In this document: positions 24,359 through 64,000 of the stretch, in pieces | Numbering within the stretch: the stretch's first letter is position 1 | Layout: every line of letters starts with the position of its first letter | From: Blasia pusilla | Taxonomy: Eukaryota | Assembly: GCA_050084515.1 (NCBI GenBank) | Contig: CM114271.1 | Location: forward strand, 24,800,001-24,864,000 | Direction: 5' to 3' | DNA length: 64,000 nt | Made by a program: the position numbers and the translations under genes | Notes under the pieces: model-generated | Databases searched by the model: none | Told to the model about the DNA's origin: nothing | The model's input: the letters and a program-made list of their open reading frames with translations, nothing else

Positions 24359-24844
24359 GGTCTCACACCAAGCTCTCCATGGTGTGAAATCTCTCTCTTG
24401 TTAAACCAAATCCACTCTCCTAATGAGAGGCTTGGGTTACACACACAAGGCAAGGAGGACCATAGCTCCGCCACCTTATGCCAAGAGGTACAACAAAGAG
24501 AGAATGAGCTCTCAAGCTCTCTCTCTTGGAGCTATACCCCCTTCCCTCTCCCAAGCCCTCTCCACGGTGACCTATGCTCACACGTCACCTCCTTGGCTCT
24601 TGACCTGTTGTAGCGGGTCAAGGGCCACTTTCCAAAGTGGAAAGTCAAATATATCAAAGATAAGAATATACCCAAAATAGTAAGTTCCTCAATATGGCTC
24701 CAAATGAGCCGAAACGAAGGGGAAATCTGCTCTCTCACGTTATCTGTGGCCTCAGAAGGTCATCCTTAACCTCCTGAGACTATCCTCAAGTATCTCCAAA
24801 GACGCTCTACTAGATCTCGCCGATCTATCCTAAAAGACATAACA
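24359..24844 (-). repeat. About 490 bp 'head' repeat (LTR-like) abutting the tail of copy B
   Basis: Homologous to 33739-34223 and, inverted, to 35907-36347. Begins TGTTATGTCTTTTAGGATAG on the minus strand. Confidence 0.9.
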
Positions 24845-24846
24845 GT

Positions 24847-34223: not shown

Positions 34224-35904
34224 GAGATCGGATCCTACAACAAGCCAAACAGTTTTAGTGGGAGGGGACACATGTGTAGCGAGTTTGGGAGGATGGTAGA
34301 GTTCATGTAGTGCATCATTCTTCGTAGAGAGCTCGTTTGGTGCAGCATGCCCACAAGGAGTTGGGTCAATTTGGAGTGAAGCGGATGTACAACTTGCTCC
34401 AGATATAGTATTGATGGCGAGTCATGCAGACTGGCGTTCAATAGTTTGTTGCTAAGTGCATGGTGTATGATCGAGTTCGGGCATCATTCAATGCTCCAAA
34501 TCGGTAGTTGCATCAATTTATGATCATAGCTCTAGGTTATAGATGGAGTTAAGATTTTGCAAGATCTTTACCTTTGACGGAATGTCATAGTTGTTATGTG
34601 TTGGTGATGGTCGAGCACTTCTCGTAGTGGATAGAGTTGGTTGCATTGCTTGACAAAGAGAGTGAGGGAGTAGCGTATGCCTTCCTAGATTGAATGTTGA
34701 GTCATTATGGCGTACCAACTGAAGTGTTGACTGACCAGGGTACCGAGTTTCGAGAGGAGTTTCAGGCCTTGTGTGATGAGGTGCTAATTGACCATCACAC
34801 CAATTTGCGAGATCATCATGAGGTAGATGGACTAGTGGAGAGGATTGTGCAGATGGTGAAGAGAGTTTTACGTAAGTATGGCTTGCAGAGAGGTCAGCTA
34901 GGAGATTGGGACCTCCAATTGTGGTGGTTGGCGATGGGGTACAGATTCAACAAGTAGGCAGGCATGCATCCTTAGTGTCTTTCTCGCCGTTCTTGGTGCT
35001 TTATGGCCGAGAGTCGGATCTACCTACGGCCATTCATTGAGATGCTCGTAAGGTGTTAAACCTTGATGACCATGATGTATGGATGCGAGCATGTTCTTAG
35101 AGGGCTGAGTTGTTTCAGAGAGTGATGCCTATGGCGTTTGAGAACTTTTCAATTGCACAATATCGGGATATGTTGAGGTATGCGACTATTTGGGGAGGTG
35201 GTTATCGACCTACTATCCAGAGGTTTCATCAAGGAGACTATGTCTACTTCTACTTAACGACATCCACGACATTGGATACGACTACAAGGCGTATTATCTT
35301 GAGAGTGCGTGAGGTTTTTCCATCTGATGTTCTCTTATTGGAGGATCGAAATGGTATGGTTTGGAAGGACCATATGCATAATTGTGCGCCATGTCACCTT
35401 CCTAACATTGACGGTGTAGTTGATCTCAGCTTAGCAGTAGTTTTTGTAGGCTTGCGATGTATGTTATGTGGTTCCGCCCGTGGTGCAACCACTATGCTCG
35501 TATGTGATGGATGTTCAGAAGATGGCCTATAGCATATCTGACGCCACCTCTCACTATGGTTCCTCGGGGACAATGGATGTGCCCTAGATGTACATAAAGT
35601 AGATAGTTATAGATTCTGACTTGTATCTGTGACATGGATGACAAGAAGGCGACTAACAATGGGGCCACAAGAGCACTCGATCTTTTTTCTCTTAGCGTTC
35701 TAGAGATGTAGGTCATGGTTGGTAGGGATCGATGGCTATCTATAGTTAGAGGGACCTAATCACCAACTATGGGGTGATTGGAGATATTTTGGTACTTCTT
35801 GTCTCGATGTTTGGATTCCATGATATAGCATGGGATTGTGTGTGTTTGTGTATATGTTCGGTGAAAACGATGTGTGTTGTATAGCAATGTGTATGCGCAC
35901 GATA
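34224..35904 (+). mobile_element. DNMT-retroelement copy A, 3' part (integrase, PHD finger, tail)
   Basis: Resumes at RDRILQ..WEGTH, about 200 bp downstream of where the 5' part stops when compared with copy C. EVLTDQGTEF, CMLCGS..CDGC..H..CPRC; tail ends GCGCACGATA. Confidence 0.88.
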
Positions 35905-35906
35905 GT

Positions 35907-36631
<725 letters not shown>

Positions 36632-38938: not shown

Positions 38939-41556
38939 ATGGCGATGAACAATCTCAGACTCTGTGTTTTGGCAATTCTGTTAGTGGTGGGATGGTCGAA
39001 TGGAGTTGCTGGAATGGAATACGAGAAGGGATGGTCCGCATTGGTCAGCGGAAACGTATTTTGCGATCAATGTCTGAAGAACGAAGTGTTTCCCTTCGCG
39101 CTGCCGATGAGTGGTGGGTGCTTCTTCTCCTTTTAATCCATCCCGCGCACGAATGTGATGTCTCTTTCCGCTTCTGTACTGTCAGTCACTTCGCTCTCTC
39201 CCGATTCGAGAGGCTTCTGTTGTCAGCTGGAACGCCACTTGTCCCCCACAAGCTCACTCGAAGCTTTCATTGCGAGCATTTCTAGACATCTATAGCTCCT
39301 GTGTTCGGATAAGTCCAGAGAGTGCGCATCGAAATTCCTGCCTGTCAGTTGAGTGAGAATATCGAGATTTTTAGCTCCTTTGATCAGTCCAGAGAGTGTA
39401 CATCTAGAGATTGTGCATCGATATTTCTACCTCCTTTGATCAGTCCAGAGAGTGCAGATCTAGAGATTGTGCATCGACCTTTCTAACTCCTTTGATTAGT
39501 CCAGAGATTGCATGTCGATATTTCTACCTCCTTTGATTAGTCCAGAGAGTGCACATCTAGAGATTGTGCATCGACATTTCTAACTCCTTTGGGCAGTCCA
39601 GAGTTTGCACATGGTGATTTCTAGCCCTTTTGATTAGTCCAGAGAGTGCACATCTCCAGATTGTGCATCGATTTTACTACCTCTTTTAATTATCCCAAAG
39701 AGTGGCACATCTGGAGATTGTGCATCGACATCTCGAGCTCCTTTGATCAGTCCAGAGAGTGCACACCTCGAGTTTGTGCATGGATTTTTCAACCTCCTTT
39801 GATGTGTCCAGAGAGTGCACATCGAGGTTTCTAGCTATACTCATTAAGTTGTGGCCTGCGTTGAAGGTGCGAGTGACTAGGACGGATGAAGGAAGGGGAA
39901 GAAAGTACTCTCTGAGAGTGACTGCACTGTACCTTGCGAGAGAGAGATTGTACTCATTTAGTAGTGATTGTCAAAGCCTTCAGACCATAGTTCACTGTGA
40001 TTGGACGGTGCCGTTGAGATTTGGGACCCACTTTCGCATCCAGATTTCAAATACTTCTTATTTGTCTATTACTTATTTTTTTTTCCACATTCTTAATCCG
40101 GACTATATCAAATGACGCAAGAAAACTCATGCGTTCACCCATACCTCGTAGGCACCCGTTCGATTCCACGGAGTTCGATTCCACGGAGTGTGGAATGGAA
40201 CGGGTGATCTCTCACCAGTTTAATTCCTAGAGAGAGAATTTGAATTGTAAAGTTTTTGGATATTCTTTTCCGGAGAAGTAGTCATCAAACAGGCCCAACC
40301 AAAGATTGCGACTTGAGGAGAAGGTCGTATGGAAAAGACAGTGCAGAGACTAAGTGATGGATTTGCGACGACTCGCGCCTAATTTGGATATAGAGAGCAT
40401 GCACTGTTTCATCCTACATATTCATCGCTCGATGCCGGGATCGTCGGTATCCTGACACTGACCATTTCTCTCCTGGGCAGGTCTGACACGCTAGTGGCCT
40501 GCGCTGTTGCAGGTGCCAAAGTCACCATTCAATGCTACGGAGCGGATGGCAGCGCAGCGGCTTCTACGACTGTCTCCACTGACTTCTTGGGTGGATTCTT
40601 TGCCACATTCAAGGACGTTTCGAATTTAGATGGATGTAACGCCGTTATGACCAGCACAGACAGCGCTTGCGCCATGACCGACGGGGGCGCTCACGCACTT
40701 TCTTTCAAATCGAAGTTCTTCTTCAACTCGTTTTACACCACCGGGCCGATGTTTTTCAAGCCCGCTCAGCCCAAGTCCTTCTGCCCCGGCTCTCCCACGC
40801 CCAAACCGCCTCCGTTCAACTTCCCCCCGCTGCCTCCTTCCCCCTGGGAGCAACCTTCTACCTGCACGCCCGAGTGAGTGCCTCTTACACATCCATCTTC
40901 CTAAATGCCTTCTCTTTGTCGGTCATGACAAGTCCTAAAAAGTCGCTCCACTCGGATCTTTGGTGCAGTGATTCTGATTTTACTCGTCTTCAAATAATCG
41001 TGAGAGTCGTCGCAGATTGTTTGAATTTTTTGAGTAGATCCAGCTAATTTGATGACCCTACTAAGTGCCACTTCTCAATGCCAGCAATCCGGAAACGAAG
41101 ACAGTTGAAACTAAGCTTGCGAATGGTTGAGTTGTGCTAATGAAAGAGCTGTGGAACTTTCCTGATCTTCACACAGCTAAGAGCGGTCTTCTGTGGAATG
41201 CCTGCAGGCAATGGATGAATTCGGAGTTTTTCTGTCATTGGAAGAATGCCACACCGTTCCAGACCACTGTGGGAATGATGTTCGGAAAGGACGCGAGAAA
41301 ACGATATGGAGATAAGAACCTGTACGATGCTATGAAAGATCAAAGTGGGCAAGATGATTTGCTCAAGCAAGCTATTGGTGCAATGATGAACGCGTACAGC
41401 AACCCAATGTTTGGCATGACTCCGAGAGCTGTTAGGTACGAATTCAATATGGCTCTTAAAGGATCGCAGCAGCTGAAATGGGACGAAGCTTGGAAATTCA
41501 AGCAAGCTAATCTTGGCTGGGGTAATGGAAAGTGCATGCTCACCCCGTGCAAGTAA
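38939..41556 (+). CDS. Secreted Pollen Ole e 1 / proline-rich protein with a PDF1-like C-terminal domain; exons 38939-39113, 40513-40873, 41208-41556
   Basis: Signal-peptide-like N-terminus, VSGNVFCDQC..PMSGAKVTIQC (Ole e 1), Pro-rich linker, C-terminal LLKQAIGAMMNAY..FKQAN. The GT-AG introns are phase-compatible. Confidence 0.88.
39285..39832 (+). repeat. Intronic minisatellite, about 58-bp unit with shorter variants, roughly 10 copies
   Basis: Recurrent CTCCTTTGATCAGTCCAGAGAGTGCACATCTAGAGATTGTGCATCGA. Confidence 0.9.
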
Positions 41557-42191: not shown

Positions 42192-45100
42192 TCACCAATC
42201 CGCTCGAGTGAAAGAAGTTGATTTTGAGCTCCATACTTTTCTTCCACGCAATGCACTAGCAGCCCAGCCTTTAACCACTTTCGGACTTTCAGGCAAACTA
42301 GATTTTCCCTCGTCCTTCTTGTCTGAGGATGATTCCCCAGTAATTTTTTCAATACCTGCAAGCTTCTGGTCCTAGAAGATGCAAGCAATATTTTAGATCA
42401 TTTGACACAATTAGTAACCAAGGTACTTGCCACATCTCTATCTAAAACTCCCACCAAGAGCTTGTCAACGATCCATTTTGTTTGAGGTAAGTTAGCAAAT
42501 TTCACCTTGGTACTGGTTATTAAATCAATCTTTGAATGATCCAACACCCGGTGGCCTTCTTCATTGATGCGAATGAAATCTTCATATTCGCAATCCCAAG
42601 CCACATCATCATCACAAACGAAGTAATCCTGCAGATAGTCAACCAAGAAACGAGCATATGAGGTTGAAATATACCCTACTGGCAAAACTTCAGAACATCG
42701 ACAGCAAACTGCTTTCAGATACTCGATGTGGAGGAGCATGACGACAGTTATGAGATAACGGAAACTACCTCCAAATGGAAAATAGGTTGCATAGACGTCC
42801 TCTCCAATCCCATGATAGTCAAGGAGAAGGAAGCATCTCCATCTTTAAGGGACTCCATCGTGTGACCATAGACTGGACTCTTCTTGTCAATGACGTGTCT
42901 AACCATGATACCATATCTTAAGTAGGATACCTGCACACGAACACGGCCCTTCCATGATTAGGTGAAGAGCCACAATTTTCCATTAGCAACGCCCTGTCGT
43001 ATTAAACAATCTAATAACATAACGTTCATGATCCAGATAAAAGGTAAATATACCTCTGGTCGCACAAGTTCCAAATCTTGAGTCGAACAGAACATCGACC
43101 CAGATGGCAGCTTGATAAATATCCGAAATGTGAGACATATCTTCGCATCAACCAACTCACAAGGTGGAGGACCAGTGAGAACTAATCGCACAGCAAAAAC
43201 CCTGAATACTTGTCACATGAGCAGTATTAGTCACAGCAATGGTAAGAACTCAGGACAAGCATATCATGTCAGTGATCAAAGCAGGATTCATTGTAGGAGG
43301 ATATTTCACTTACTTAAATTTTTCCTTGTCTTCCATTGATACTGAACTGAAGTCATCAGCCTTAATTATGGCCTTCTTGGAGCAGCGCACTGGATGTGAT
43401 GGTTGGGACATTCTCGCAAAGACTGCACGATCACAGGAGAGCCAGCCCTGTCATTGTAGTTGCATTGGAAAAGGACTGACCAATTACTCAACAACCGAAG
43501 ATACAGGAGAGCAACAACATTAAGGAGGAACAACGATCCAGGAAAAAACACTAACCTGCTCCACTTAGAAAGACGAACAGAAATTGTCCCATCAGAGTAT
43601 TGACATTTGCAATAACTAGGCACAGTGGGGACATAGCATTCACAGGGGAGCCACCAAAGGTTGTCGAGAGTGACAGCCTGCAAAGTAGAAGAGATGTCGC
43701 ATTAGCATTGCAATTGTCTGCGCTTGCAGTAATGGCCAAACTCGAGATCAGGGTAAAAACAGAGAGAGCCGGAAACTTACGCATAGAGGAACACTTGCAG
43801 CAAAGCCGAGGCTTTCTGCCTTGCAGCTGCCACTCGACTGACAATTACGACCTCATCCTCGGCCAGAGTTACTCCGTCAAAGGCAAGTCCTCCCTTGTCG
43901 AAGAGATATAAGGGTGTAAACATCAACGCGAGACAGATGGGAGTGCAAAACACACCTAACACGAAGTGGGTCATTGGCATCTGCACGCACAGAAAATTTC
44001 AATCCATCAAAACTCCGAAAATATGGGCATACGCTGGGACCTCTATCCTCTAAATAATTCAGGGGTGCGCCAATGAATGAGAGTACAAGGCAATTTAAAA
44101 TGATAGAAATGATGCCTGCACTTGAAAATGGAGTGCATCTCCGTTTTGTGGGACTTTTTTGAATGCTCATTTGATGTCCATCGTCTCAAACGGAATTACA
44201 TTACAAGCCAGATATGTGTTTACCTTCAAGCAAGCCACGTAGAAGTCTTGCACAAGGGTAACGAACCCTTTGTCTTGCCTCACCATCATTCCCTCCATGC
44301 CTCGCCTTCCCTTGGCTCTAAATCTGCCCCTGATTCTGGCACCCTCGAATGCTGCTGCTCCGGCCCTTCCGCCATCGGTTCTCTCAGTATATTCATCCTC
44401 AGGAATTTCTAACGGTCCACCATCCTCTAGGAAGTCACTACCGGACCGTCTCGAGATGCTCATGGGATTGGCAAGCGCCATTTTAAATCTCACACGACGC
44501 CATCGGTTACGAGCTTCTACGGAGGCATTCCTCGAGAGACTAGAGGAAGATGGACCCAAGGGAGGTTTCGAAGAAACATGCCTTCCAGGCATCACGTCAG
44601 TCTCCATTTGATGCTTTGGAGCACCGAAGTGGTCGTCGAGGTGCTGCCCATTGGATGGAGATTTAGGTTCCCCTGTGACATCCACTGGCACTTCCTCAAA
44701 TTCCGAAGCCGGCTCCACAACTTCCTGGATCTCTTGCTCTTGCCCCGGCTGGAATGAAGCGTAGATCTCCTCCATGGTCTTCCTATCCACTGAATCTGCA
44801 GTGTTAACCACACCTTCCGCATCGCCTTCTTCAACAATTTCGTTGGGGGGTTTATGTTCAAACTTGGGCCTCCGTTCCTCATCGACTTCGGCCGGATGAA
44901 CAGTAGTGCCATTAAGATTGGAATAAAAAATCCCCGGGTTCCGTAGTCCCGAGCTTCTCAATCGCAATGAACGATCCTCATAACGTCCATTGCTGAGGAT
45001 TTCGGGGTCATGATTTCTCTCCGATGCCCGAGCGTCCTTAATATCTCGTGCACTGGTCCTGTCACCACCTCCTCCCCGGAAGAAGATCAGGGAAGGATCA

Positions 45101-45600
45101 TCCTCTACACCATCACCGAACTTTGTTCCGCCGAAATATCCTCTTGCTAGCTTCCTTTTCCCATCTTGACCACCGCTGGCCAAAATCTGCTCTTTGTCTC
45201 CAAACGAGCCATCGAAGCTGTGCTGGTGACTGAGTCGACCGGTTCGTTCTTGAACACCTTCGTGCTCCTTGTACTCCTGCCTCTTAGTAAACGTCAAGGC
45301 TTCGGGTGCATCATAGTAAGTCTCACGCCTTGAACCTTCGCTGACGATTCCAGGCATGGAGAGTGTTCTTAGAACGTGCTCCGAAGACGAGCTGGACGTC
45401 TTCCTGAATGCCGGAGACGTCTCGCGGGGCGTAAGAAACGGAAGTCCTTCTCCATACAAGGAAAAATCCAGCCCCGTTTCCTCTATGGACGGTGCCGATG
45501 ACAGGGAGACCCGTAGATTATCACGCTTCCACGCCGTTTTGGACGGTCCTGTCGACGGGAGGCAAAATTCAGAATGAGAATTGGAAACTCGGCGAAACGC
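42192..45600 (-). CDS. Inward-rectifier K+ channel (Kir/IRK family) homologue, multi-exon, with a long low-complexity N-terminus; start and last exon uncertain
   Basis: Slide helix QDFYVACLK, TM1, pore LSLSTTFGGS, TM2 ..LSGAVFARMSQP..VRCSKKAI, VRL..ELVDAKI, RHVIDKKSPVYG, IMGLERTSMQP and DDDVAW..YED..LDHSKID follow the Kir domain order, with GT-AG boundaries between blocks. Confidence 0.85.
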
Positions 45601-46282
45601 TGTGGCTGATCAGCACCTGAAGCGATGATATTCAAAAAGAACGGACAAAAGCGCAAGCATCGTTTGAGAATCGATATAGTCAAGAAACGAATGCAGAAAA
45701 CGAGCAGCTCAAAGCATAGAAAAGGAACATGGCCACAAAAGTGGTGTGCCGAATTAATGCAGGAAACTTGAAAGGGAGGAGTAGTAACTGATCATGAGCT
45801 GCAACTACAGGGATCGGTCCAGAGCAGACTGATATGCAACCAACGCTACACACGACACTTCCTTCTTACACTGTGCAGAGTGGTGGGAATTCCTTCAACT
45901 CTCTCGAGTTTCGTCACACCACACCATCCTCGATCGTAACCATCTCTCTACTGTCCGTACCAGATCAAACTCGTAACAATCCTCTCGTCAACTCAAGGGA
46001 AACAGTAACACCTGGGAGAGCTTCGGAACAATCTCGCCGCAGGCAACAATTCACAGCACCGATCACACACTGTCCATCAATCTCTCACAAGGTAATCGCG
46101 CTAGAGCATTTCTTACGAGCACGCCGATTCGTCAAATGACTAGCGGATTCTCATCCAAGACTGACTAATTCCCTCCTTATCCACCCGATCAGAAGCTCAT
46201 TGTCCGCCCTCCAATCTCCGCCTCCTCCACCTGCCCGATTCGATTTCCTTCGACATATGAATCAATCAATCATTATCCTTCC

Positions 46283-50519: not shown

Positions 50520-51800
50520 AGACGAGAGTATTTGGCAGGAGATGGACGACATGGGCCATCGAGGCATGCGTCGTTTCTCGGGTGCAGTGGGCACCATCGA
50601 CTTAGATGATTTTATCTAGGAGTTTGACACATGGTGCGACTTCCAGGAGATACGGACCCCGACACGGGTCAACCCTTTCATGGCATGGAAGGGGTTGTTC
50701 CAGTACTTGGAGGGTCCTCCAATGGATGACTACATGGAGTTTCCATCACTACATTCAATAGAGATTGATGCCTGGAGGATGTATTAGGCTCCAGGGTATG
50801 TGTCCACTAATGGTCGCGAGGCATATGATGGGATTGTGAGAAGAGAGAGACCCACACCATAAGCCCGGAGACTAGATGGAGAGGAGGGCAGTGAGACAGG
50901 CGATGTGGCAGAGACCTCTGGTGGTAGAGGGCCACCCAACTTCAGCCCCACAGTGGAGTTCTTCCGACAGTTAGGGAAGAGTTACCAGGGCTTACGCACC
51001 GACAAGCTGAAGAGTCTATAGGATTTTCAGCGACGATCGGGTGAGAGTCTGAGAGAGGCATTCACAAGCATGAGGAGGCTGATCATTGCTACGTTTGGAG
51101 GATCGAGGCGCGATCACCCGATTGGTGACGGGTTCGGACCGAAAACTACGGAGGAGAGTTTGAGATGCGGTGCTGAATCACAAAGCGAAGCCCACATTGA
51201 AGGTAGTCTTTGAGTTGTCAAAGCGTATTGAGCTCAACATGAGTGAGGAGCAGGTAGTGACCGCTGGATTTTCTCGGGAGTCGACGGGTCCACGAGCGAC
51301 GGTGACCCCATAGGTGCCACAGCAAGCACCAGTATCACGGGAGCGGGCCAGTGTGCCTAGAGAGCAAGGCGGGTACCGTGAGCCTATGAGGCAACGACCC
51401 GTACCTACATATGTTGCCCAGCAGGGACCGATGTGGTCTTGTTGGACGTGTGGAGGGGCCCATAGGCATAGAGACTGCCCACAGCATGGGAGAGGACCAC
51501 CAGTGCCTCCAATTGCTCAGGAGCCACAGAGGATGGTCCCACCACAACACCAGTGTGACCATTGCCATAGATATGGTCACACTAGGGATAGATGTTTTGA
51601 CCTTCGTCGAGGGGCACGTCCAAAGGTAGGCCGAGGGCCTTGGGGCGGTCGTCCTAGAGGAGGTCAGGGAGTTCATCCTGGACGTGGTGGTAGAGGACCA
51701 CCACCAACTAGAGGAGATGGAGCAGGAGCACCAGAGCCGCCACTTCTCTCATGCATCGATCAGTTGGAGCAGAGGATTGTTGCCATGACGATGATGCGCT
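50520..51800 (+). pseudogene. gag of copy C with two zinc knuckles and an RGG-rich stretch
   Basis: RRFSGAVGTIDLDDF..WKGLFQYLEGPPMDDY; CWTCGGAHRHRDC and CDHCHRYGHTRDRC. Confidence 0.8.
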
Positions 51801-52429
51801 TTAGGAAGGCACGGAGCTGCGAGCAGCTAGTGTGACTCCAACTTCTACCTCTTACCCTGACCCGAGTAAGGATCTTGCCAGTATAGGATTTATGTGTAGT
51901 ACAGCCCAGGTTGAGGCATCTGCAGTGGTGACTCGGGGTGCTGCGAGAGGCACCGAGCCATGGAGAGGTGGAGTTGAGATTGACCCACCAGAGGGGACCG
52001 ATGGGCGGCAAGCCAGGGTTCCACAGTCGTTCACATTGTCGGAGGCACTACACACACCATCGATGGTGCCTCAACGACCAACGGTGCCTACAGTTCAGGC
52101 ACCTACGTCGACGTCACGAGGAGTTGGAGTGACAACTCCTATGCCGGCTCGAGTGGAGTCAATGTTGACCATAGTGTTGGAGGTGGCCACCAGAGTGAGT
52201 CAGACTCCGCTATTTTCCGCCATAGATTTGGCGACGTTGGGGGTTGGACCAGCTGAGGTGTTCCCGTTGGCCGCCACGTTGTGTGAGCGTGGAGAGATGA
52301 CTGCTTCTTGTTCAGAGGTAGTTGAGGAGGTGGTGGACTTGCCATCAGAGCCGGTGCTTGGGACGTTCCCCACAGAGTCATGGCATGCGGCGGCGGCGAA
52401 GTTGGTAGATATGCCAGCTCGACCGGCCA

Positions 52430-52900
52430 TAGAACGAGTAGTGGTGACACCTGGAGTAGTGTTACTGGATAATCGAGCTGGAGTATTTCGCTTGGTTAGT
52501 CCGACGGGGACTATATACCACCCGCAGCGCGTCCTACTTGATTCGGGAGCGCAACCCTTGATGTTAGGGAAGACGGCGTGTTTACCATTGGGATTACGGA
52601 AGGCCGACATTGAGCCTTGTCCCTTCCAGATCTGAGACCTCAATTGGGGCGTATCACCCACTCAAGATATGACTCGACAGAGATTGTTGTTAGAGTCCGG
52701 CCGAGTATCGACGGATAGTGCTATGGTGCGCACACATGCGATTACGACACTGGCCGTAAGTGCGATGTGTTGGTGGGGAGTACAGTGTTATATCCCCTAG
52801 GATTCATCCTTGACTTCTGGGAGGAGACCGTTGCTAATCGGCCAAGATGGCCATCAGGTGACGGCCAGATGAGTCAGTTACCCATGCAGTTTGCGGGACG
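52430..52900 (+). pseudogene. Retropepsin-like aspartic protease of copy C
   Basis: VLLDSGAQP active-site motif and downstream DVLVGS..L. Confidence 0.85.
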
Positions 52901-53249
52901 AGGTGGTCGATCACGAGGCGAGTCTCTGACCACGTTGGCAGCTTTCACAGGTAGTGTTAGCTGGCCAGGAGAGTTGTTGGAGGGGAACGCACATGCGGAG
53001 GATGTCCCAGTAGCGGATAGTCCCACGGAGAGACAGGCCATGGCGGGTGTCTCTTCCCATGTTGGAAAGGCCTCTTCACCATTGTGGGGTACGACTCGAG
53101 AGCTACAGAGGAGTGTCGACGACCTCGTGAGGCAGGCGTGGAGTCATGTTTTATCCCAAAGCAGCAAGAGTCACGTGGCGATCGGGCTCTTGGAGTGGAG
53201 ACGTTGACCCCATTGGATACCACACCTGTTGTGTGGCAGTGCCCAGAGG

Positions 53250-54190
53250 AGGGTGTTAGGGTGTTAGATCTCTTCGGAGGGATTAGCACTGGATTGGCTG
53301 CACTATTGCAGGCGGGCATACGGGTGCATCAGTACCTTTATGTGGAGAGAGATAAGACCGCGCGGCGAGTATCATTACGTCACGTGGCAAGATTGGTCCA
53401 GAGGTATCCTAAGTTGTTGCCGGTATCTGCAGTACGGGGATATCAGCATACGCTACCCACCGACATCTCTTTGGTGGGGGCGCAGGATCTGGATAGAGTT
53501 GGCACCATTCATTTGGTGATTGCTGGATGGCCATATCAGGGTCATTCATCAGCTGGCCGAGGATTTGGATTGCAGGATCCGAGGTCAGGGATGTTTTGGG
53601 AGATGCTGCAAGTAGTATGACACTTGTAGGAGAGTCAGATATGTTCTCCAGTGATATATTTTGGAGAACGTGCCATTGTTGGGAGACACTCGTGCACGTG
53701 TGATGACGAGTGTACATCAGGTGAGGTCCTGGTTGGGACCTGCTATGTTGTTAGATGCAGCGAGAGTTTGGTCACGTGCCCATCGTCCACGACTATGGTG
53801 GACTAACTTGATACCATCAGAGGTATTGAGTCGAGCATACGATGGAGTCCAGAGAGCACCACATCTCACAGTGGATGCTATTTTGGGCTCAGGGTGTCGA
53901 TCTCAGGTGGTGACACGAGATGATAGACCACCGTTGGCCATGGCCAATAGGGTGGGGGAGTTGAGGGCAGCCTTACCTACGTTGGTAAGCTTCCCAACAT
54001 CCCATGCCTTTCGTCAGGGAGGGCCAGGCATGATTTGGGATGAGGTGACCGGAGCATTGGAGGAGCCTACAGCATATGAGCGCGAGCCCGCCATGGGGTT
54101 CACTACCGGTACTACGGCGGTGCCAGGGATGACTGAGGCATCCCGGAGACAGGTGTTGGGGCAGGCAATGGACCTCAACTGTCTCATATG
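53250..54190 (+). pseudogene. DNMT3-like C5 cytosine methyltransferase domain of copy C
   Basis: VRVLDLFGGISTG (I), YLYVE (II), LVIAGWPYQG (IV, Cys>Tyr), GLQDPRSGMF, ILENV (VI), AHRPRLWWTN (VIII), ERE.AMGF (IX), RRQVLGQAM (X). Confidence 0.92.
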
Positions 54191-54654
54191 GATAGTCAGC
54201 CTAGGTATGGCTGAGCAAAGACGGATGCGAGTGTCATCCATGTCGTCACGTCCACGAGTTGGACCATTGCCTACAGGGTCTGTATAGGCATTGGTTGGGG
54301 GCAAAACAAGGAGAGATAGGCACCCATGGACTTCCTGGGACGTCGTTCAAGCAGAGAGTGCGAAGGCCGCTAGAGTAGCACATGTTCATTTTTCGGATGC
54401 GGAGCATGGTGTAGGAGGTCAGAGTGGAGTGGATGTTGCGGAGGTGGCTAGGGTTGCTACATAGCAACCAAAGCCCGAGGTTACGTCCTCTCTGAGTGAG
54501 GTCACGATGGAGACTTGGGAGCTTGTGATAGGTCTCAAGTTGATAGGAGGAGAGCGACGGCGAGTTCATAGGTTTCTAAGAGGGCATGTCAGTTTTTTTG
54601 CCTTCAGTATGAGAGACTTGGGTATCGCTGAAGGGTCCCGGGATACGGATTGAG

Positions 54655-55940
54655 TTGGCTAGTGATACGTCGATCTTTCGTCGACCCTACAGGTATTCTT
54701 ATATGGAGCGAGCCTTGATTCAGAGCAAGAGTCAGGACTTGTTGGAGGGAGGACTTATGGAGTTATCACATGGGGAGTATGCATCTCCCACAGTCATGCC
54801 GACAAAGAATGATATATATGGCAATTGGACGGATAGGCGGATGTGTGGAGATTACCGTCCTATCAACCAACAGACGAGGTCAGATCGGTACGCCATGCCT
54901 ACTCCCGAGGAGATCTTTGATGTGGTAGGGAATGCAAAGATCTTCAGTACTTTAGATCTCCATGATGCTATCATCATCTTCTTATTAGGTTGGAGGACAA
55001 GGAGAAGACAACATTCTGGGGGATAGATCGGTTCGGGAGAGATTGCTTATATCAGTGGCGGTTCTTACCATTTGGGTTGAAGAACGCGCCTGCAGAGTTT
55101 TAGAGAGTGATGGATAGGATTCTCGCTGGCTTGGATTTTGTACGATGTTACATAGATGATATTCTTATCTTCAGTTCCATGGTTGAGGAGCATGAGCGAC
55201 ACTTGGAGGAGGTGTTTCGGCGATTGCGTTACATGGACTGAAGTTACATCCAGGCAAGTGCAGATTCTTTCAGGAGTAGATTGAGTACTTGGGACACATC
55301 ATATACCCGAGTGGGTTAGGCGTTCAGAGATGAAGGTAGAGGCTATTGCGCAGATTCCACGCCCTATAGATGTGAGTCGGGTCCGAGCATTTCTTGGACT
55401 GGCGAACTTCTATCGACGGTATGTCAAGGGTTTTAGCGCGATCACAAAGTCTTTGACCTTGTTGACGAGACTTGATCAGGTTTGGTTGTGGGGAGACGAT
55501 CAGGAGCGAGCATTTTAGGAGCTCAAGGACAGGTTGACGTCCTCACCCATTTTACAGAGACCGGTTAGGGGTCGCCCATTCCAGTTACATATGGATTGGA
55601 GCATGTTGGATCTAGGAGCAGTGCTTACTCAGAGGGATGACGAGGAGAGGGAGTTCGTTGTGGCTTACGCGAGCCGATCAAACAACATTGCAGAGGCGAA
55701 GTACAGCTCCTACAAGGGAGAGTGCTTGGCTGCAATGTGGGCCATGCCACATTTCATGTGCTATTTATTCGGTAACCCTTTCACACTTATCACTGATCAT
55801 CCGCCGTTGAGGTGGTTGATGGAGTCCGACAAGCTCACGGGAAAGCTTGCTAGGTGAGCTCTTTTACTACAGGAGTATGAGTTTGAGGTGTTTCATAGGC
55901 CAGGTCGGCTGAACCAGGATGCGGATGGGTTGAGTCATAA
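54655..55940 (+). pseudogene. Ty3/Gypsy reverse transcriptase and RNase H of copy C
   Basis: RMCGDYR, FSTLDL, LPFGLKNAP, CYIDDIL, FLGLANFYRRYV, VVAYASRS, ITDH.PL. Confidence 0.95.
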
Positions 55941-56199
55941 CCCATATCCAAGTCAGAGAGACGACACAGGAGCTAGATGGCACGGAGAGAGTAATGAGGA
56001 GATGGTGCCCGGTTGGCATGCATCTGCCTATCTTTGTTGGCTGACTATGGTAGGTCAGCCACAGGTGATGACTCCAGTGGTGGAGTTGGATGATGAGTCT
56101 TTGGATCCCGAGTTTAGTGAGGAGGCGAAAGGTGGTCGTGATATCCATGATGACGTGGAGGTTGTGGAGTTCTTGCGCACTGGCGTCATTGCGAGTACA

Positions 56200-57581
56200 G
56201 TGAGTGCTAGGGAGCGGGATCGGATCCTAGAGAGAGCCAAGAGGTTCAGGTGGGAGGGGACTCACATTTTGCGGGTATGGGGAGATGGTAGGATACGAGT
56301 GGTTCCTCATCTTCCCATTGAGCACGTGTAGTGCGACATGCCCATGAGGAGTTGGGACATTTCGGAGTAAAGCGTACTTACAGCTTACTCCAGGTTCACT
56401 ATTGGTGGCACGGCATGCATCTTTGGGTACAACGGATTTGTGGCGGATGTATGGTATGTGACAGAGTGCAAGCATCCTTTAATGCTCCAACTCCGCAGTT
56501 ACATCCTTTGCCGATTATGGGTTTAGGTTATCGGTGGAGTTTAGACTTTGCGGGACCTTTGCCATTGACGGGACATCATCATAGGTACGTGTTGGTCATG
56601 GTGGAGCATTTCTCCAAATGGATAGAGTTAGTGGCACTACCAAATAAGGCGAGCGAGGGAACAACTTATGCATTTCTAGATCGTGTGCTTAGTCACTTTG
56701 GTGCACCGGTGGAGGTGTTGACTGACCAGGGTACCGAGTTCAAGGGAGAGTTTCAGGCCTTGTGTGATCAGGCGCTGATAGATCACCACACCACGTCCAG
56801 AGATCATCCTGAGGCGGATGGGTTGGCGGAGAGAGTGGTACAGCCGGTGAAGAGAGGATTGCGCAAGTATGGCTTGCAGCAGGGACAGTTGAGGGAGTGG
56901 GACCTACAGTTGCCATGGTTGGCTATGGGTTATCGCTTTGGTCGGCAGGCATCCTTTGCATCATTTTCACCGTACTTTTTGCTCTTTGGGAGAGAGCCAG
57001 ATTTACCTGCAGCGATTCGACGTGACATGGTGGAGGTGTTAGATCTTGATGATCCAGATATATGGGTACATGCATGTTCTTAGAGGGCAGAAGTTTTTCG
57101 TAGAGTTATGCCTATGGCCTTTGAGAACTTAGCTATTGCCCAACATAGAGATACATTGAGGTACGTGACCATTCGTGGAGGAGATTATCATCCAGGGATT
57201 AGAAGGTTTCATCCTGGAGATTACGTGTATTTACAGCAGGCGGCACCCACAACGCTAGATGTCACTGCAAGGTTCACAATCCTACGTGTGCGCGAGGTAT
57301 TACCGACCGGAGTCCTCATGTTGGAGGGACGGGATGGTATGGTTTGTAAGGATCATGTGCGCAATTGTGCGCCATATCATCTTCCGAACGTAGATGGGAC
57401 GGTGGTTCTGAGCTTGGCAGTGGTACCTGCAGGCTTGAGGTGTATGTTGTGCGGATCTGCGAGGGGTGGAGCCACCATGTTGGTATGTGATGGTTGTTCT
57501 TGAGGGTGGCATATGTCATGTCTGACCCCCCCTCTTGATGTGGTTTCCACGGGACGATGGATGTGTCCGAGATGTGTATAG
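56200..57581 (+). pseudogene. Integrase with C-terminal PHD finger of copy C
   Basis: HHCC motif (HAHEELGH..CMVC), SLDFAGP, LTDQGTEF, DGLAER; PHD CMLC..CDGC..WHMSC..WMCPRC at 57441-57575. Confidence 0.93.
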
Positions 57582-60099
57582 GGTAGTAGGTCATGTTAGA
57601 GAGATGTGATATTTTCTATCTGGAGTTTGGGAGATCCAACTGCCAGCTAGGGGCACGGTTGTGTGATCTCCATGTATATGTATGAGTTGATTTTTGTACA
57701 TGTGTGGATCGACCCGTGTGTGGGGAAGATCGGTGTTGTGTGGTATAAATGTGACCAGCGATGTATGTTGTGTAGCGATATGTATGCGCACGACGACAAC
57801 TCTGTTGAATAAATATAATTCATTCCCTCATTTGTAACAAAATCAATACTAAGATAAATATGGTTTTGTACATAATATACACTTTTTAGAAAACATTTTC
57901 CCAAAAACTTAGTCTAAATTTGATAAATTAGACAAAATTAAGTCATTTTCATTAAGAGTAAGAATATTAAGAATAAAAATTATTACCTATCCATAAAATA
58001 GAGACATGACTTATGTATTTATGTCATCAACATCTCTATTTCTTGGTTTAAGAATAATTGTATCTCTCAAAAATTTGATGTCATTAAACCTTTGAAGATC
58101 ATTCCCATATATAATATCAATAAGATAATTTACATTCTTGCTATAAGCAATCATGTTAGATAGTAGTGGAATAAAATCTTCTCCCAAAGAAGTATGTAAC
58201 GGAAACACCTAAAGCAATACCTCCCTTACTTCTTACTCTTGCAAGGAGAAAATTATATAATAAGGTCTTTTATGTTCCACCTAGGCCATCCATAAAAAAA
58301 ATTTACATAAGGTTAGATCATTATGTGTCATGTTATCCAATTGATCTTGCAATTGATTGTGTATAGCATCCCAAATGATCCATTGTCCATCATTCAAAGA
58401 TGCCTCTCCACTTCTAACTTGCTCACGTAAGTCATTTTGATTATATAAGAGTGTCTCTTCCTCCAAAAGTGTTTGTGAATGAGGGGATTCAAAGTTAGGT
58501 TGTGGCATATCTGGAAAATCATACAATCTCTTTCGAAGATCTTGCAAATGATAATGCAGTGTTAATGGTAGAAGCATCAAGTGGAAGATTCGGAATTCTT
58601 CTTATCTGCAAGGACAACCGATATAAATCTAAAAGCTATCCATAGATATGGTTGTGAATAGGAAGAAGGAAAAGAAGAAGAAAGATGAACAAAGTTCTAA
58701 TTCTTTTGATTACCTCATGTTGTTCATATAATATATCCTCTATGAGTGGAGCCAAAAATTGACTTCATGCTACAATCAATCTAGTAGGTATATTATAAGG
58801 CAAAATAACAACAAATAATTGGCAAAGTGAGGAACCGATGCGAATCTCTGAAGATTCTTGTAAGCAAGAGAAGACTTCATTATCATCCTCAAGAAGTCCC
58901 AATTGAAAAGCAACTTCCTTAAAAGTTGGATGTATTACTCTATGTACAATTCTCAAGTGTTCATAGAAAGACGCACCTAGAACATGATGAAGAAGTAATC
59001 GTAGCCAATGACGTTCTACGTCAACTGTTGAAACATATGTAATTGGTTGGATCATTTAGTATCGGAAAAAAATCACTTATTTTCTTACATTAAAATTTGA
59101 AAGTTAAATAAGAAATTCAACCCAAATTAAAATAATGGCTACATAAGCATAGTACAATATATATTGTTTACTTGGATATGTAAGGCATAAATATCCAATA
59201 AGATGACGCAACCATTTATTCTTTGTATTCTACGAACTCTTTTTTTTTTACTCCAACGATAATATAAAGGAAAGTTATGATCTAAATACTCTCGAGCCAT
59301 TCGATCCAGTTGACAAGAAATAAACCATTGAGCTAAGGTGGTCTCCCTATTTCTTTGTAAAATATCTCATGCATGTCAAAATCACTGATGTAAACCATTT
59401 ATGCCTTTGCTAGATGAAGAGCCAATCTCATTACACTTGGATGTTCAACATATAAATTAAACTTGAAAAGTTGCCAACATGCCTCTAAAGAAGAGATATA
59501 CCTACATACAATTCCAATATAACTTACTTTATAGACTTCAATGTATATAATGTCATTAAAAAATTGAATGAGAATTAGAAAGAGAATAAAATTCTGTTAA
59601 GTTTACCTTGCATCGAGATATATGTTTATCTCATAGATGATCTCCATTGTCGTGGAGGTATCCATATCTTTTGAGACCTTAAATGATATAACATCAAATC
59701 CCTTACATACATATTTATATAAGTATTTCACCGCAGAAATATTATTTCTGATCTCCAAATTAATTTGAAAATCAAAGAGGATATATAATAAAGGATTATA
59801 AGGCATGACCCATCAATTATCCAAGCACTTGTCGCGCTGAATTATCTTCTTTCCATCGTCCAATCTAGCGAATGTAGCGAGAACAGATATAAGATATAAG
59901 ATATGAAGATTAGAAGAGATGAAAGATATATGTAGGATTTACAACCAAAAATAAATAAAATTTATACACTACAAGAAGCTCTACTTTAGAGTTCATTGAG
60001 AAATTAATAGTTTAAGAACCTTTGATAGATTGGGTAACCATCTTCAATCTCCGAAGTCAGAGCCGTAAATGCCTTGGCATAGCCTTTGGTATATTTTTT

Positions 60100-62600
60100 A
60101 GTTTCCCTATCCATGCATCACCTTGTACTTTGCCTCGATAGAAGAAAGAGATATTGTAGGTTTTTGACCCATGATTCCACACCTGATCCTATCAAGAAGC
60201 AAAAATCCAAAACAAATCTTTGTGAATCTGATTCTTCAGCCCAAGTTGAGTTACAAAAGCCTATCATTTTGTCCCAACGCTATAAGTGATGCCATAGTCG
60301 CTAGTGCATGTGGTGTACTTCAACAAACGCACCCATGCCTTCCAATGATTGTCACGAGGCTTAGTTGAGAACCTACTCAAAACACCCAAAGCGAAATTGA
60401 TGTCTAGTCTTGTTGTATAATAAAGTATCAAACTTCCCACTAGCCTTCTATTCGTTGATGCATCGTGATCTAATCCAGCTGGGCATCTTAATGCAATATA
60501 GGGTTAGAGCATCCCAACAACACTAGTCAAGAAATTACCCACTTCATATTACTACAACTTCTTGGACGTCTAAATCAAAACCATCAATTAAAGCTTTTCC
60601 TCATGTAAGGGGGCCCATCACATCAATGGTGCACAACAAGAAGTGGATGTTGAGAATCCATCATATATGGCACTAAAAGCAATCATTTTCATGATAGTAT
60701 TCATAAGGCAAGTTTGCTACTATCCTCATGCAAAATAATATTAAAAAATAAGCTCTTTTGTAGTATTATTTGCCTAAAGAGCCCTAACAAGAAAAAAATT
60801 GCCCCGTAAGCCCTATCAAGCAAATAGTGTTTTTGTAGATAGATAGGAACTTTATAACTTGTGCCTTATGGATGGTTATCTTGCAATTAACATGGTTGTA
60901 CATATCATTATCTTTATTTTTTACTGAATTTTCATAAATTATAATATGTATATATAAATTCAATTTGGAATTGATTCTCCTATTTTAATTTTATACTTCT
61001 TATATCTTGTAATTAATAGGACTCAAATGTCACTATTAATTTGGTAGATAAATTGATTTTTCTTGAGTTATCGTATAAATAATAAGACCCCGACTTATAC
61101 CAAATGAAATATTACTATACTCTTTTATAAGAAAAAATATTTTGAGCCCATAGTAGTTTGCATAATATTGGTTGAATTTTGAAAATCATATCCCCAATCC
61201 TCTCTCTCATTTAAAAAACAAAAAAACCCCTTCCCTTCCTTTATTTTCATTGTGGAAAACAAAAAAATTCCCATTTGGAATCAAGGTTTCATGGAAACGG
61301 ACAAGTCCGAGAATGTCCATGGACATGCCCAGCGGGTCCCTTCCATGTGCCTGAGCTCCTAATGTAGATTCGGGCTCGGCCAACCCATATCCATTTTTTT
61401 GCCCGCATAAATCCCATTTGTAGCCCATGAATGAGCCTACACAGGGCCCGCCATACCTCGAGTCATGCGCGGGCTTCATACGGGCTATAAAATGGGTGTG
61501 GGCTGGCCAAGCTTGGATCTACATTATGGGCTTGGCGGGCTTGGGTGTGGGTCGTGGGTCCGCGAGCCCGCACGAACATATCTGTCCTAGGGATGGACAT
61601 GGACTTTGTCTCTGTATAACCTTATCTCCTATGATGATGAGATCATATACTTAAAGGATGACCAACATGTACATCCCATCTTCACAAAATACATACAATT
61701 TTGCTTCTAAGATACTCTTGGTGAGGCCCATTTCTTTGAAGAATGTACGTCATTGTTGATACCATACCTTAGGGGCTTGCTTTAGCCCATACAATGCTCA
61801 ACGAAGTAGACCTACTTTCTCTTTTGATTTGGGTATCTCAAAATCTAATGGTTGAGATACATACACTCCTCTTTAAGACTACTATTAAGAAATGAAAACC
61901 TTACATCACACTTGTATACATGCCAACGTCTTATTCTCACCACAACTAGAACAATTTGAATGGTTATCATCCTTGTAATAGAGCAAAAGTCTCATAGTAA
62001 TCAAAACCTTCAATTTGTGAACAACCTTGTGCAACCAATCTTGCTTTGAGTTTATCCAACATACCTTTCAACTTCTACTTGGTCTTGTACATCCACTTGG
62101 TACAAAATATCTTACTCTCCTTAGCTTCTGAACCAAAGTCCAAATTTTCTTTCTTTGAATAGCATCCATCTCTATTTGCATGGCCTCTTTCCATTGAGAA
62201 TCCACAAGAGCCTCGTCCAAGCATGTTGTTTCTTCCACCTTCAAGAACTTTATTATTAAGGCCATATTGACAAGATGTGCATAAGCTCTATTGCGCTCTT
62301 CTAGTCTCTTGGATCTCCTTGGATATGTAGTTGGTGGATCCTTACCATCCAAGAACAACTTTATCCACTCAAGGTATAATGACCATAGGGGAAGAGCAAG
62401 TTTCTCTTTGTACTTATCACTAAATTCTTTTTCTTGGTGATTTGGTGCATGCATTGATGATGTGTTTGGGTGGGTTATCTCTCTGTTTGAGGATAATATG
62501 GATGGACCACTAATATTTGCTACTTGACAAGGTTGTTCTTGAAACAACACATCAAAACTCCACCACTCATTGAAGTCGGTAGGAGATTTCACCGCCACAG
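60100..62600 (-). mobile_element. Ty1/Copia pol remnant, interrupted
   Basis: WKEAMQIEMDAI, ALYGLKQAP..W (about 61790), RRLVGSLI..TRLDI.FALGVLSRF (about 60400), ISLSSIEAKY (about 60140). Confidence 0.8.
61280..61590 (-). mobile_element. hAT-like MITE, homologue of 13308-13870
   Basis: Shares GGACAGA..TTCGTGC, AGGGACCC.TGGGCATGT and TTTCCATGAAACCTTG blocks in reverse orientation. Confidence 0.5.
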
Positions 62601-64000
62601 CCCCAATGGCTTATCCAAATAATGTGAGGGTAGGGAAGGAGAGTGTCCCCCTCATCCCTCCCCTTATAGGTACGCTTGAATTTTATCCCCCTATTCATCT
62701 TAAAATCCCAATTCCCAAACCACTTGCTCTCAACAAAGAACTCATCTTAAGGCTTGCTTCTCCCTCTTGGCTCTCACTTAGTTCCCATAAGGAGTTCCAC
62801 ATCTTTCCCCCAAAGACTTGTATAAACCCACATATCTATCTTGCCTCTTGGCTAGTCTTAGCATGGGGCCTAGGTATAGTTTGCCAAACCTCGGTCTTAA
62901 GGGTTGTATGTTTTCTCACATATTTTGATCTCCCTTAGGTATATTTTTTTTGCCCTTTCTCCAAGCGCAAGGCTTATCTCGTGACTTGCCGCTTACCTAG
63001 TCTTGTGAGTGACTCAGTAGTGTTTGTTCTACCTTCGTGCTTCCATTAAGATCGATCCTCATTTAACGTGCAACCATAACTTGCTTGTTGAATCCCTCCA
63101 GTGTATGCATCCAAGACTTAGCTATTTATGATGACTTTTATTCCTTTTCTTTCAAAATACCTTAACTTTCGCCTACTATGATACGTTTTCAACACATAAA
63201 AACAACATGTGTACTACCATCACCCATATCTATTGGAGTTCTCTCACCTTGATCACAACTAAAAAGAGTTACGAATCCCACCCAAGAAATTACTCAAACA
63301 TGATAATCAAGTTTATTAGGGTGTAGATAATCAAGTTTATCTTCCTATGTCTATTTGTTCCCGATGCTCTATCTTTGGAGACATAAAACTAGACAAAAAG
63401 AGAATGTGAGAACTTTATACAAGAGAGGACGGAAAGATAGGAAAGCATATCCTCCTCCTTTTCCCCACCCTCCTCTATTTAGTGGTAATATTATAACAAA
63501 CTGTACTAATCAACACCAAATAAATATAATAAATACCAACACTAGAGAGAATCCATGGCATTTAACATTGAATCTTTTACAACTAGGTCTAAGAAAAATG
63601 AGCTTCAAACTAGTCTAATTGGAAAATTCCAACGTGTAAAATTCTATTTAAAAGAAGAATATATACAAGACTATTCAAGTTCAAAAGGAGGACGTGTCCA
63701 TAATATTCAATTTTATTTGAAAAGAAATAGTCTTAAAATAAGTAATTAAGGATATTTCAAAGTGGTTATTTTGGTTTTTTACTAGTAAAAGTACGTAAAG
63801 TTGTAGTAAATAGTAGAGGTGAAATGAAATGTGTCAATTTAGCTATTTATTTTTATAAAAAATAAAAATTTTAAAAAAATAAGAGAAAAACTTCATATGA
63901 ATTTTAGAATATAGTGTTATGGCTAATGTTACTTCTAATTTTTACAACTAGGTGAACCAACAATAATGAACTAGAATTTTTTACAAATCCTTCTTCTTCT

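Follow-up and report, generated by a model that had tools for sequence, protein, structure and literature searches.

Does a Gypsy-type retrotransposon of Blasia pusilla encode its own cytosine methyltransferase, and is that enzyme a working part of the element or an accident of capture? The question is raised by a stretch of 64,000 nucleotides (nt) of the B. pusilla genome (assembly GCA_050084515.1, contig CM114271.1, positions 24,800,001 to 24,864,000 of the forward strand; hereafter the window, in whose own numbering all coordinates are given). An earlier note, made from the sequence alone, had placed a DNMT3-like cytosine-5 (C5) methyltransferase (DNMT) there between the protease (PR) and the reverse transcriptase (RT) of such an element. 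The window contains three dead, diverged copies of one bryophyte Ty3/Gypsy long terminal repeat (LTR) retrotransposon family, one nested in another, here called copies A, B and C. Comparison by tblastn with four relatives revealed the order gag-PR-DNMT-RT-RNase H (RH)-integrase (INT) in all three. The window copies are dead relics; what gives them value is the family behind them and the fact that a model liverwort has it.

The methyltransferase domain lies at 21688-22649 (+) in copy A, 29544-28565 (-) in copy B and 53250-54230 (+) in copy C, with the motifs in the order and at the places given in the earlier note. Each copy has the unpermuted arrangement of motif I (FGG), an acidic residue following the second strand, motif IV (GWPC or GWPY) and motif VI (ENV), followed by motifs VIII, IX and X, which read AHRxRLWWTN, ERxxAMGF and GQAMD across the copies. 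Copy C reads VLDLFGGISTG from 53256, LVIAGWPY, ENV at 53661, AHRPRLWWTN, EREPAMGF and GQAMD. The motifs quoted in the note are real, but its wording was a composite, with LVIAGWPC present in copy A only and ERAMGF taken from copy B. The motif IV cysteine is retained in copy A only (PCQ), and copies B and C have tyrosine (PY). The domain is interrupted by two stops (53618 and 53627) and one frameshift before 53655 in copy C, by five stops and a frame change in copy B, and by seven stops and frame changes in copy A.

The match to methyltransferases is far beyond chance: the open reading frame (ORF) 53655-54287 matched 851 representative proteins at E<=1e-3, of which 454 reached E<=1e-10, with a best E-value of 1.8e-77. 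With the Pfam profile PF00145, which the note had suggested as a check, intact relatives pass at 35.1-46.1 bits, but the window ORF 53021-53620 scores 19.2 bits, below the cut-off of 22; the window domain is 60-69% identical to the relatives that pass. The catalytic motifs PCQ, ENV and RxR are nearly invariant in 21 relatives, and PCQ and ENV occur at single positions in an intact metagenome element (L049).

Profile search, fold match and motif order indicate that the family's domain is DNMT3-like in sequence and predicted fold and, as proposed in the note, not permuted like DRM. With a single Marchantia relative as query, the first match was the DNMT3A catalytic domain (1.7e-08); M.HaeIII and DRM ranked lower. 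A profile built from 21 relatives was compared with the PDB, giving DNMT3A at 1.2e-27, DNMT3B at 1.5e-25 and DNMT3C at 1.7e-25, and DRM at 3.3e-14, M.HhaI at 2e-09 and DNMT2 at 3e-06; DNMT1 was absent from this search at E<=0.01. DRM aligned to the profile over motifs I-IV only, through its C-terminal half, as expected because DRM is permuted. An AlphaFold model of a 64%-identical relative (predicted local distance difference test score 78, predicted template modelling (TM) score 0.79) was submitted to Foldseek, and all listed matches, to rank 49, were DNMT3A, DNMT3B or DNMT3C, with E ~1e-16 and a target-normalised TM score of ~0.8. Pfam reported neither PWWP nor ADD domains in the relatives P0161, P0168, P0156 and P0027, which is compatible with DNMT3 membership because some DNMT3s are described as having no companion domains in the covered part of a later paper (PMC12344493). 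Matches in the ESM Atlas comprised one Streptophyta PF00145 cluster together with clusters of phage methylases.

Within the family the domain is a constant component and not a one-off capture, as the note had held: its position is the same in the three window copies and in dozens of polyproteins that other species encode. Among the matches listed, the closest named relative is Calypogeia fissa, with up to 69% identity to the window domain. Marchantia polymorpha has many loci at 60-65% identity (e.g. Mp_4g09160, Mp_6g11220, Mp_8g17980 and Mp_2g26090), and further named relatives come from M. paleacea, Riccia sorocarpa and four Sphagnum species, with Closterium more distant. Some relatives are uninterrupted single ORFs of 2188-2374 amino acids with a zinc knuckle followed by PR-DNMT-RT-RH-INT. 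In an unrooted tree of 77 element-borne DNMT domains, the window copies group with Marchantia and Calypogeia; the clade, of 20 rows, is starred (99). No protein from Klebsormidium nitens and none from vascular plants was present among the matches listed (52; 120 of 211; 102), which for vascular plants is weak evidence of absence.

In bryophyte genomes, loci of this family now carry the annotation "hypothetical protein" or that of a "DNA (cytosine-5)-methyltransferase" gene, and in metagenome bins they appear as bacterial methylases. Two relatives, P0175 and P0350, have records that assign them to bacterial metagenome-assembled genomes (Obscuribacterales, Minisyncoccia), and in metagenomes further relatives go under the names 'site-specific DNA-cytosine methylase' or 'transposase InsO'; these are probably mis-binned plant or algal contigs. 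The metagenome loci used below came from a scan seeded with the alignment, an earlier scan with a single window ORF having given 219 pattern matches, 0 of them confirmed.

Neutral evolution of the domain, the outcome that the note had set against its reading, is not what is observed between lineages. The ratio of nonsynonymous to synonymous divergence (dN/dS) of the DNMT domain is 0.10-0.23, near that of RT-RH and indicative of purifying selection, these low ratios being rough because dS between lineages is near saturation (1.2-1.9). Comparison of copy A or B with copy C gave 0.18-0.23 for DNMT and 0.15-0.16 for RT-RH at dS 1.6-1.9. For the intact metagenome elements L048, L049 and L050, the DNMT ratio ranges from 0.10 to 0.14. 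Between L049 and L050 it is 0.12, with 0.21 for PR plus linker, 0.42 for the tail and 0.06 for ORF2, the frame that follows the stop described below; between L048 and L049 it is 0.14 at dS 0.25. Closely related pairs give high ratios, about 0.5 for DNMT and 0.6 for RT-RH between A and B, the closest window copies, and 0.91 for DNMT at dS 0.06 between L004 and L010, two close loci with intact domains. Both pairs fit decay after insertion and provide no evidence of constraint. Constraint along lineages combined with neutral decay within copies is the sequence pattern of a functional element component, and it matches the DNMT Ka/Ks below 0.2 given for the Klebsormidium Gypsy-DNMT3 family in the covered part of its description (PMC5890265).

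These data bear on two alternative accounts of the domain. Were it the remnant of a host DNMT3 gene, or a chance capture in one element that was then copied along, three window copies that are all dead would be unsurprising. Its identical position in at least four liverwort species, in Sphagnum and in Closterium, its maintenance in two intact metagenome elements at near-saturated dS (~1.4), and the dN/dS of 0.10-0.23 given above, refute this account as far as sequence data allow, and we give it next to no chance. The domain might also have been kept for something other than DNA methylation, either RNA methylation as for DNMT2 or a structural or DNA-binding role that needs no catalysis. A single assay of a streptophyte Gypsy-DNMT3 enzyme has been published; it detected no methylation by the Klebsormidium protein in yeast and would agree with such a role, as far as the covered text describes it (PMC5890265). 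The near invariance of the catalytic Cys, ENV and RxR in 21 relatives, together with a profile much nearer to DNMT3 (1e-27) than to DNMT2 (3e-06), makes this account very unlikely.

The frame of the domain in the polyprotein was analyzed next to its sequence. A continuous PR-DNMT-RT frame, which the note had named as a check, was found in part: DNMT is in frame with Gag-PR and with the downstream pol region, but in this clade a conserved in-frame UAG splits Gag-PR-DNMT from RT-RH-INT and the PHD finger that follows. The same nine letters, UAG-CAA-CCA, stand at homologous in-frame sites in copy C (54462-54470, +), where they form the end of ORF1 (Gag-PR-DNMT) and a candidate leaky stop, and in copy B (28268-28260, -). 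The pattern TAGCARYYA has two matches in the window, those of copies B and C, against 3.6 expected; the count is not above chance, and the weight of UAG-CAA-CCA therefore lies in its homologous in-frame position.

A downstream anchor is available in 61 metagenome loci; the homologous codon is a stop in 38 of them, with CAR after it in 37 loci and TAA in one further locus (TAG-TAA). The contexts are TAG-CAACCC (20 loci), TAA-CAACCC (10), TAG-CAACTA (2), TAG-CAGTTA (2), TAG-CAACCA (1), TAG-CAACTC (1) and TAG-CAATCA (1); the remaining codons are ACA with an open frame (20) or something else (3). L049 consists of an ORF1 of 1369 amino acids (gag-PR-DNMT) and an ORF2 of 1047 amino acids (RT-RH-INT-PHD) in one frame, with TAG as the sole separator, and L050 and L028 are alike. 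Five protein models of the bryophyte clade (three from Marchantia, one from Calypogeia and one from a metagenome) terminate exactly at the stop site. Two further Marchantia models are longer and pass over the stop region as if it were an intron.

The sequence UAG-CAR-YYA is given as the consensus for context-driven readthrough in plant cells in the covered part of a study of such signals (PMC3159437). The elements of type I readthrough, an in-frame UAG followed by CAR-YYA and a conserved open frame beyond it, are present in copies C and B. An exact fit to UAG-CAR-YYA is also found in L028, L048, L049, L050, L060 and L061, and 31 further loci have CAA-CCC or CAA-CTC. With a conserved in-frame stop, ORF1 is Gag-PR-DNMT and RT-RH-INT-PHD most likely depends on readthrough; from these contexts, readthrough of the UAG is probably how RT-RH-INT-PHD is made.

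The alternative is that the UAG is an ordinary terminator of ORF1, and that RT-RH-INT-PHD is produced by splicing, reinitiation or a subgenomic RNA. Most stop loci lack the full CAR-YYA, the largest clade (30 loci) having CAA-CCC without the last A, and TAA replaces TAG in 10 of the 38 stops. No conserved RNA structure was found 3' of the stop in nine sequences, which gave eight weak pairs, 0 of them compensatory, at -3.4 kcal/mol. All of this is as expected of an ordinary terminator. Set against it, ORF2 is always in the frame of ORF1 in unbroken elements and starts right after the stop with no requirement for an ATG, the residues just 3' of the stop are conserved, and six metagenome loci and two window copies match UAG-CAR-YYA exactly. 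We therefore consider ordinary termination rather unlikely and continue with readthrough. RNA structure as the readthrough signal was rejected on the lack of compensatory pairs.

At the homologous stop site, copy A has a tyrosine sense codon, and a sister clade (20 of the 61 loci) has ACA and an open DNMT-RT frame, so the stop is specific to one clade. This sister clade lies among loci L051-L080 (e.g. L053 10034-12574), with a DNMT 35-41% identical to P0157, the first protein of the alignment, and an open DNMT-RT-RH frame.

A PHD finger, which like the in-frame UAG goes unmentioned in the note, is located at the C-terminus of the polyprotein, after the integrase, in all three window copies. 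That of copy C (57441-57575, +; frame end at 57579-57581) scores 44.8 bits with PF00628 (cut-off 24) when read with X at an internal stop at 57501. All covering RNA reads and most of the DNA contig depth carry another letter at this site, and the stop is thus private to copy C. Pfam reported no chromodomain in the window ORFs or the relatives scanned, the PHD finger standing in its place. Chromoviruses are Gypsy elements with a chromodomain after the integrase. They likewise have a histone-tail reader fused to the integrase C-terminus, but theirs is a chromodomain and the one here a PHD finger (PF00628).

We favor, with moderate confidence, a model in which the bryophyte family encodes Gag-PR-DNMT in ORF1, then a conserved UAG in a tobamovirus-type leaky context, then RT-RH-INT-PHD, and in which an active DNMT is packaged and methylates the element's own cDNA or insert, the replication enzymes are made by readthrough, and the PHD finger acts as a tether. 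Its observed basis is the element's anatomy, the resemblance of the domain to DNMT3 in sequence and fold, the constant position of that domain across species, purifying selection from lineage to lineage and a conserved stop; the activities are proposed. In this model, the DNMT of intact members, judged by their sequence, would be an active DNA C5-methyltransferase. The main translation product would be Gag-PR-DNMT, and the full Gag-PR-DNMT-RT-RH-INT-PHD would arise by occasional readthrough, by analogy with gag-UAG-pol of murine leukaemia virus. Both products would assemble into the particle through Gag, so that the DNMT would travel with the cDNA; its fusion to Gag-PR would be the reason for its production in Gag amounts and its packaging. 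In the particle or the pre-integration complex, it would methylate the new cDNA of the element or the fresh insert. The PHD finger, replacing the chromodomain of chromoviruses, may tether the integrase to a histone-tail state. Possible gains from self-methylation are mimicry of gene-body CG methylation, self-restraint or protection. A similar idea of self-methylation is raised for the algal and dinoflagellate elements in the covered part of their description (PMC5890265). The three window copies are themselves no longer capable of any of these activities.

The enzyme might instead act in trans on chromatin, marking the target, together with the PHD reader, as a safe heterochromatic site, or laying down gene-body-like CG methylation that blunts silencing by non-CG methylation and RNA-directed DNA methylation. 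Production of DNMT from ORF1 at Gag stoichiometry would far exceed the need of an in-particle enzyme, a PHD chromatin reader accompanies the element in both of its architectures (see below), and the authors of the algal study leave the role of the enzyme open in its covered text (PMC5890265). The PHD finger, however, is carried by the integrase and not by the DNMT, and lies 3' of the stop, which would place writer and reader on two mostly separate products. We regard action in trans as a lesser possibility, and self-methylation of packaged cDNA or the fresh insert remains the reading we prefer.

Several observations weigh against this preferred reading. Every window copy is broken, and neither B nor C retains the catalytic Cys. 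An unbroken DNMT domain was found in only 6 of 80 metagenome loci, with internal stops in 41 and a best match that does not span the domain in 33. Placement in the DNMT3 clade is suggested by profile and fold, the tree being unrooted and made of element-borne domains only. The published yeast assay of the Klebsormidium enzyme, already cited, is inconclusive. To these must be added the high dN/dS of the two closest pairs, the roughness of the between-lineage ratios, and, at the stop site, the CAA-CCC and TAA contexts, the sense codons in copy A and the sister clade, and the result of the RNA structure analysis.

Analysis of 394 stored relatives, a sample biased by the search queries, revealed two architectures. 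In 50 of them DNMT lies between gag/PR and RT, as in the window. In 152 it separates RNase H from integrase, and a PHD finger usually closes the polyprotein; the rest are 191 DNMT-only fragments and one with INT-PHD only. The RH-DNMT-INT type forms one starred clade (99) in the 77-domain tree. A search seeded with a metagenome polyprotein of this type retrieved Haematococcus, Monoraphidium and Chromochloris, and the sister architecture RT-RH-DNMT-INT-PHD is thus found in chlorophyte algae. These distributions tentatively suggest a wider picture, which we hold with less confidence than the model above: an old Gypsy group spanning the green lineage, equipped with a DNMT3 writer and a PHD reader, with RT-RH-DNMT-INT-PHD in chlorophytes and PR-DNMT-RT-RH-INT(-PHD) in streptophyte algae and bryophytes. 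In bryophytes the DNMT would have been relocated to the Gag-PR frame, 5' of a leaky UAG of the tobamovirus type, and would be made in capsid amounts, with the replication enzymes needing readthrough. To our knowledge, no plant LTR retrotransposon has been known to carry a DNMT in the Gag-PR frame ahead of a leaky UAG.

Three RNA-seq runs with the same species label as the best-matching DNA runs were mapped to copy C, giving 152, 213 and 211 reads from 10-12 million records. Nearly all of the reads are 95-99% alike to it and most fit only partly, consistent with an origin from related copies. Coverage is low and sense-biased, with a depth of 0-1.3 over DNMT and up to 11.5 over RT-INT, and the first mate mostly on the minus strand. 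One DNA run placed 61,189 contig pieces on the 8 kb of copy C, indicating a highly repeated family. The observed/expected CpG ratio is 0.56-0.69 in the copies and 0.44-0.85 in the flanks; these values are not clearly different and allow no conclusion on past methylation.

The assignment to Ty3/Gypsy follows from the PR-RT-RH-INT order in all copies and the direct LTRs of copy B. Copy C extends overall from 50542 to 57581 (+). Its gag region (50542-51604) matches residues 1-350 of Marchantia P0161 by tblastn. Two CX2CX4HX4C zinc-knuckle-like strings can be read in the translation of ORF 51314-51835, although Pfam gave no zf-CCHC match on this broken ORF. The protease region (51823-52761; LLDSGAQ) matches P0161 413-713 and P0168 1-181 by tblastn, with its D-S-G motif within ORF 51805-52635. 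Downstream of the DNMT domain and the UAG, reverse transcriptase is spread over several frames at 54601-55327 (tblastn to P0027, P0158 and P0168), followed by RNase H at 55490-55870 (PF17917, 94.1 bits, in ORF 55519-55857) and integrase at 56322-57176 (tblastn), with an H2C2 zinc domain (PF17921, 49.5 bits) and a core (PF00665, 56.1 bits). No LTR pair for copy C was found between 46-51 kb and 57-62 kb, and its 3' end seems truncated near 57.8 kb.

Copy B is a whole element (24358-34224, -) inserted into copy A. Its LTRs (24358-24845 and 33738-34224) are direct repeats of 488 nt with 86.7% identity. Copy A is thereby interrupted into a 5' part at 20813-24261 (+), with PR, DNMT, RT and RH, and a 3' part at 34310-36349 (+), with integrase, a frameshifted PHD finger (about 35400-35560) and the 3' LTR (35752-36349).

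Overall, the window amounts to a transposon nest. At 13085-15878 (-) lies a fourth fragment, from this Gypsy family or a related one; its gag-like and RT-like pieces are scrambled, and no DNMT piece was detected in it. ORF 547-1245 (+) contains DUF4218 (PF13960, 116.8 bits), which we take to be typical of plant CACTA/En-Spm-type transposase genes. A direct repeat pair at 5805-6093 and 11531-11857, 5.7 kb apart and 75-86% identical, possibly represents the LTRs of another element. At 39344-39836 there is a tandem-like array of seven copies of a 130-nt unit with alternating 56/41-nt spacing and 63-100% identity. The longest open frame in the window (480 amino acids, 44167-45609, -) matches no Pfam family, and the ESM Atlas gave nothing usable for it. 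Directly after the truncated 3' end of copy C, G+C falls to 0.32-0.37 across 58000-64000, and the one ORF tested among the minus-strand ORFs at 58281-59055 gave no Pfam match.

A cytosine methyltransferase borne by a transposon inverts the usual picture, in that the parasite carries the silencing enzyme of its host. In the covered literature, the sole streptophyte example in print is algal, and its enzyme gave no result in one assay (PMC5890265). Liverworts and Sphagnum mosses contain this kind of element in abundance, with a histone reader attached to its integrase and a probable leaky stop that would set the DNMT:RT ratio. If this is correct, the role of a transposon-encoded DNMT could be tested in a genetically tractable land plant, Marchantia polymorpha, which has many annotated loci.

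How does the family compare with known systems? At the level of the enzyme, the catalytic domains of mammalian DNMT3A, DNMT3B and DNMT3C are the best sequence and fold matches, sharing the motif order I-X and the RxR-x-W-x-NL of motif VIII. Identity to them is ~21%, and the domain here has no PWWP or ADD and no known DNMT3L partner, and is embedded in a retrotransposon polyprotein. Plant DRM is likewise DNMT3-related and is a de novo enzyme of plants, but it is circularly permuted, whereas the family here is unpermuted.

The stop has viral parallels. The tobamovirus stop context is UAG-CAA-UUA, and murine leukaemia virus uses gag-UAG-pol. As in these viruses, an in-frame UAG separates an abundant upstream product from the polymerase, and the UAG-CAA-CCA of the window fits CAR-YYA. 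The differences are that PR and DNMT lie 5' of the stop here, that CAA-CCC or TAA is the reading in many relatives, and that readthrough is predicted from sequence.

DNMT-bearing retrotransposons were mentioned in the earlier note, and the kind is indeed known, from KnitGypsy-Dnmt3 of Klebsormidium and the Symbiodinium elements (PMC5890265; this and the next two sources are cited for the text covered). The note knew of no well-described land-plant family. Our literature search, which covered article texts (supplements may list bryophyte copies), likewise found none, nor any paper on the family in bryophytes, on the PHD finger or on the in-frame UAG, and it returned 0 papers for the Marchantia gene identifiers. 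In the covered text, later papers name no land plants for streptophyte Gypsy-DNMT3 (PMC12344493; bioRxiv 10.64898/2026.05.21.726589), and the main text of a plant LTR classification does not contain 'PHD', 'methyltransferase' or 'Marchantia' (Neumann et al. 2019, PMC6317226).

Two other groups of elements are more distant. SymbioDIRS-Dnmt3 and SymbioLINE-Dnmt of Symbiodinium are also retrotransposon-borne C5 methyltransferases, and the SymbioDIRS enzymes perform de novo CG methylation in yeast, but these elements differ in class (DIRS with a tyrosine recombinase; LINE) and in host kingdom (PMC5890265). The EpiLTRs of Cymbomonas and Euglena are also LTR elements with a DNMT and a chromatin reader. 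They differ in a DNMT that is sister to DNMT4 and in the addition of a Dam-like adenine methylase and a chromodomain, and the preprint sets them apart from 'streptophytes (Gypsy-DNMT3)' (bioRxiv 10.64898/2026.05.21.726589).

The closest system is KnitGypsy-Dnmt3 of the charophyte Klebsormidium nitens, whose acquisition of the domain is attributed to that lineage (de Mendoza et al. 2018, PMC5890265), the likeness being judged from its published description. Both are LTR/Gypsy-type and have an unpermuted DNMT3-like domain within the coding region that is conserved among copies; the Klebsormidium domain is intronless and multi-copy, with a DNMT Ka/Ks below 0.2. The host of KnitGypsy-Dnmt3 is an alga, and the hosts here are land plants (liverwort-type, and also Sphagnum). 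KnitGypsy-Dnmt3 has DIRS-like terminal repeats (Fig. 4c legend, PMC5890265), whereas copy B has two plain direct LTRs. Its DNMT lies in the Pol ORF, whereas here it is the C-terminal domain of the Gag-PR-DNMT frame before a conserved UAG, and a PHD finger, present here, receives no mention for KnitGypsy-Dnmt3 in the text covered (PMC5890265). The family belongs to the known kind Gypsy-DNMT3, which here occurs in land plants and has a variant architecture.

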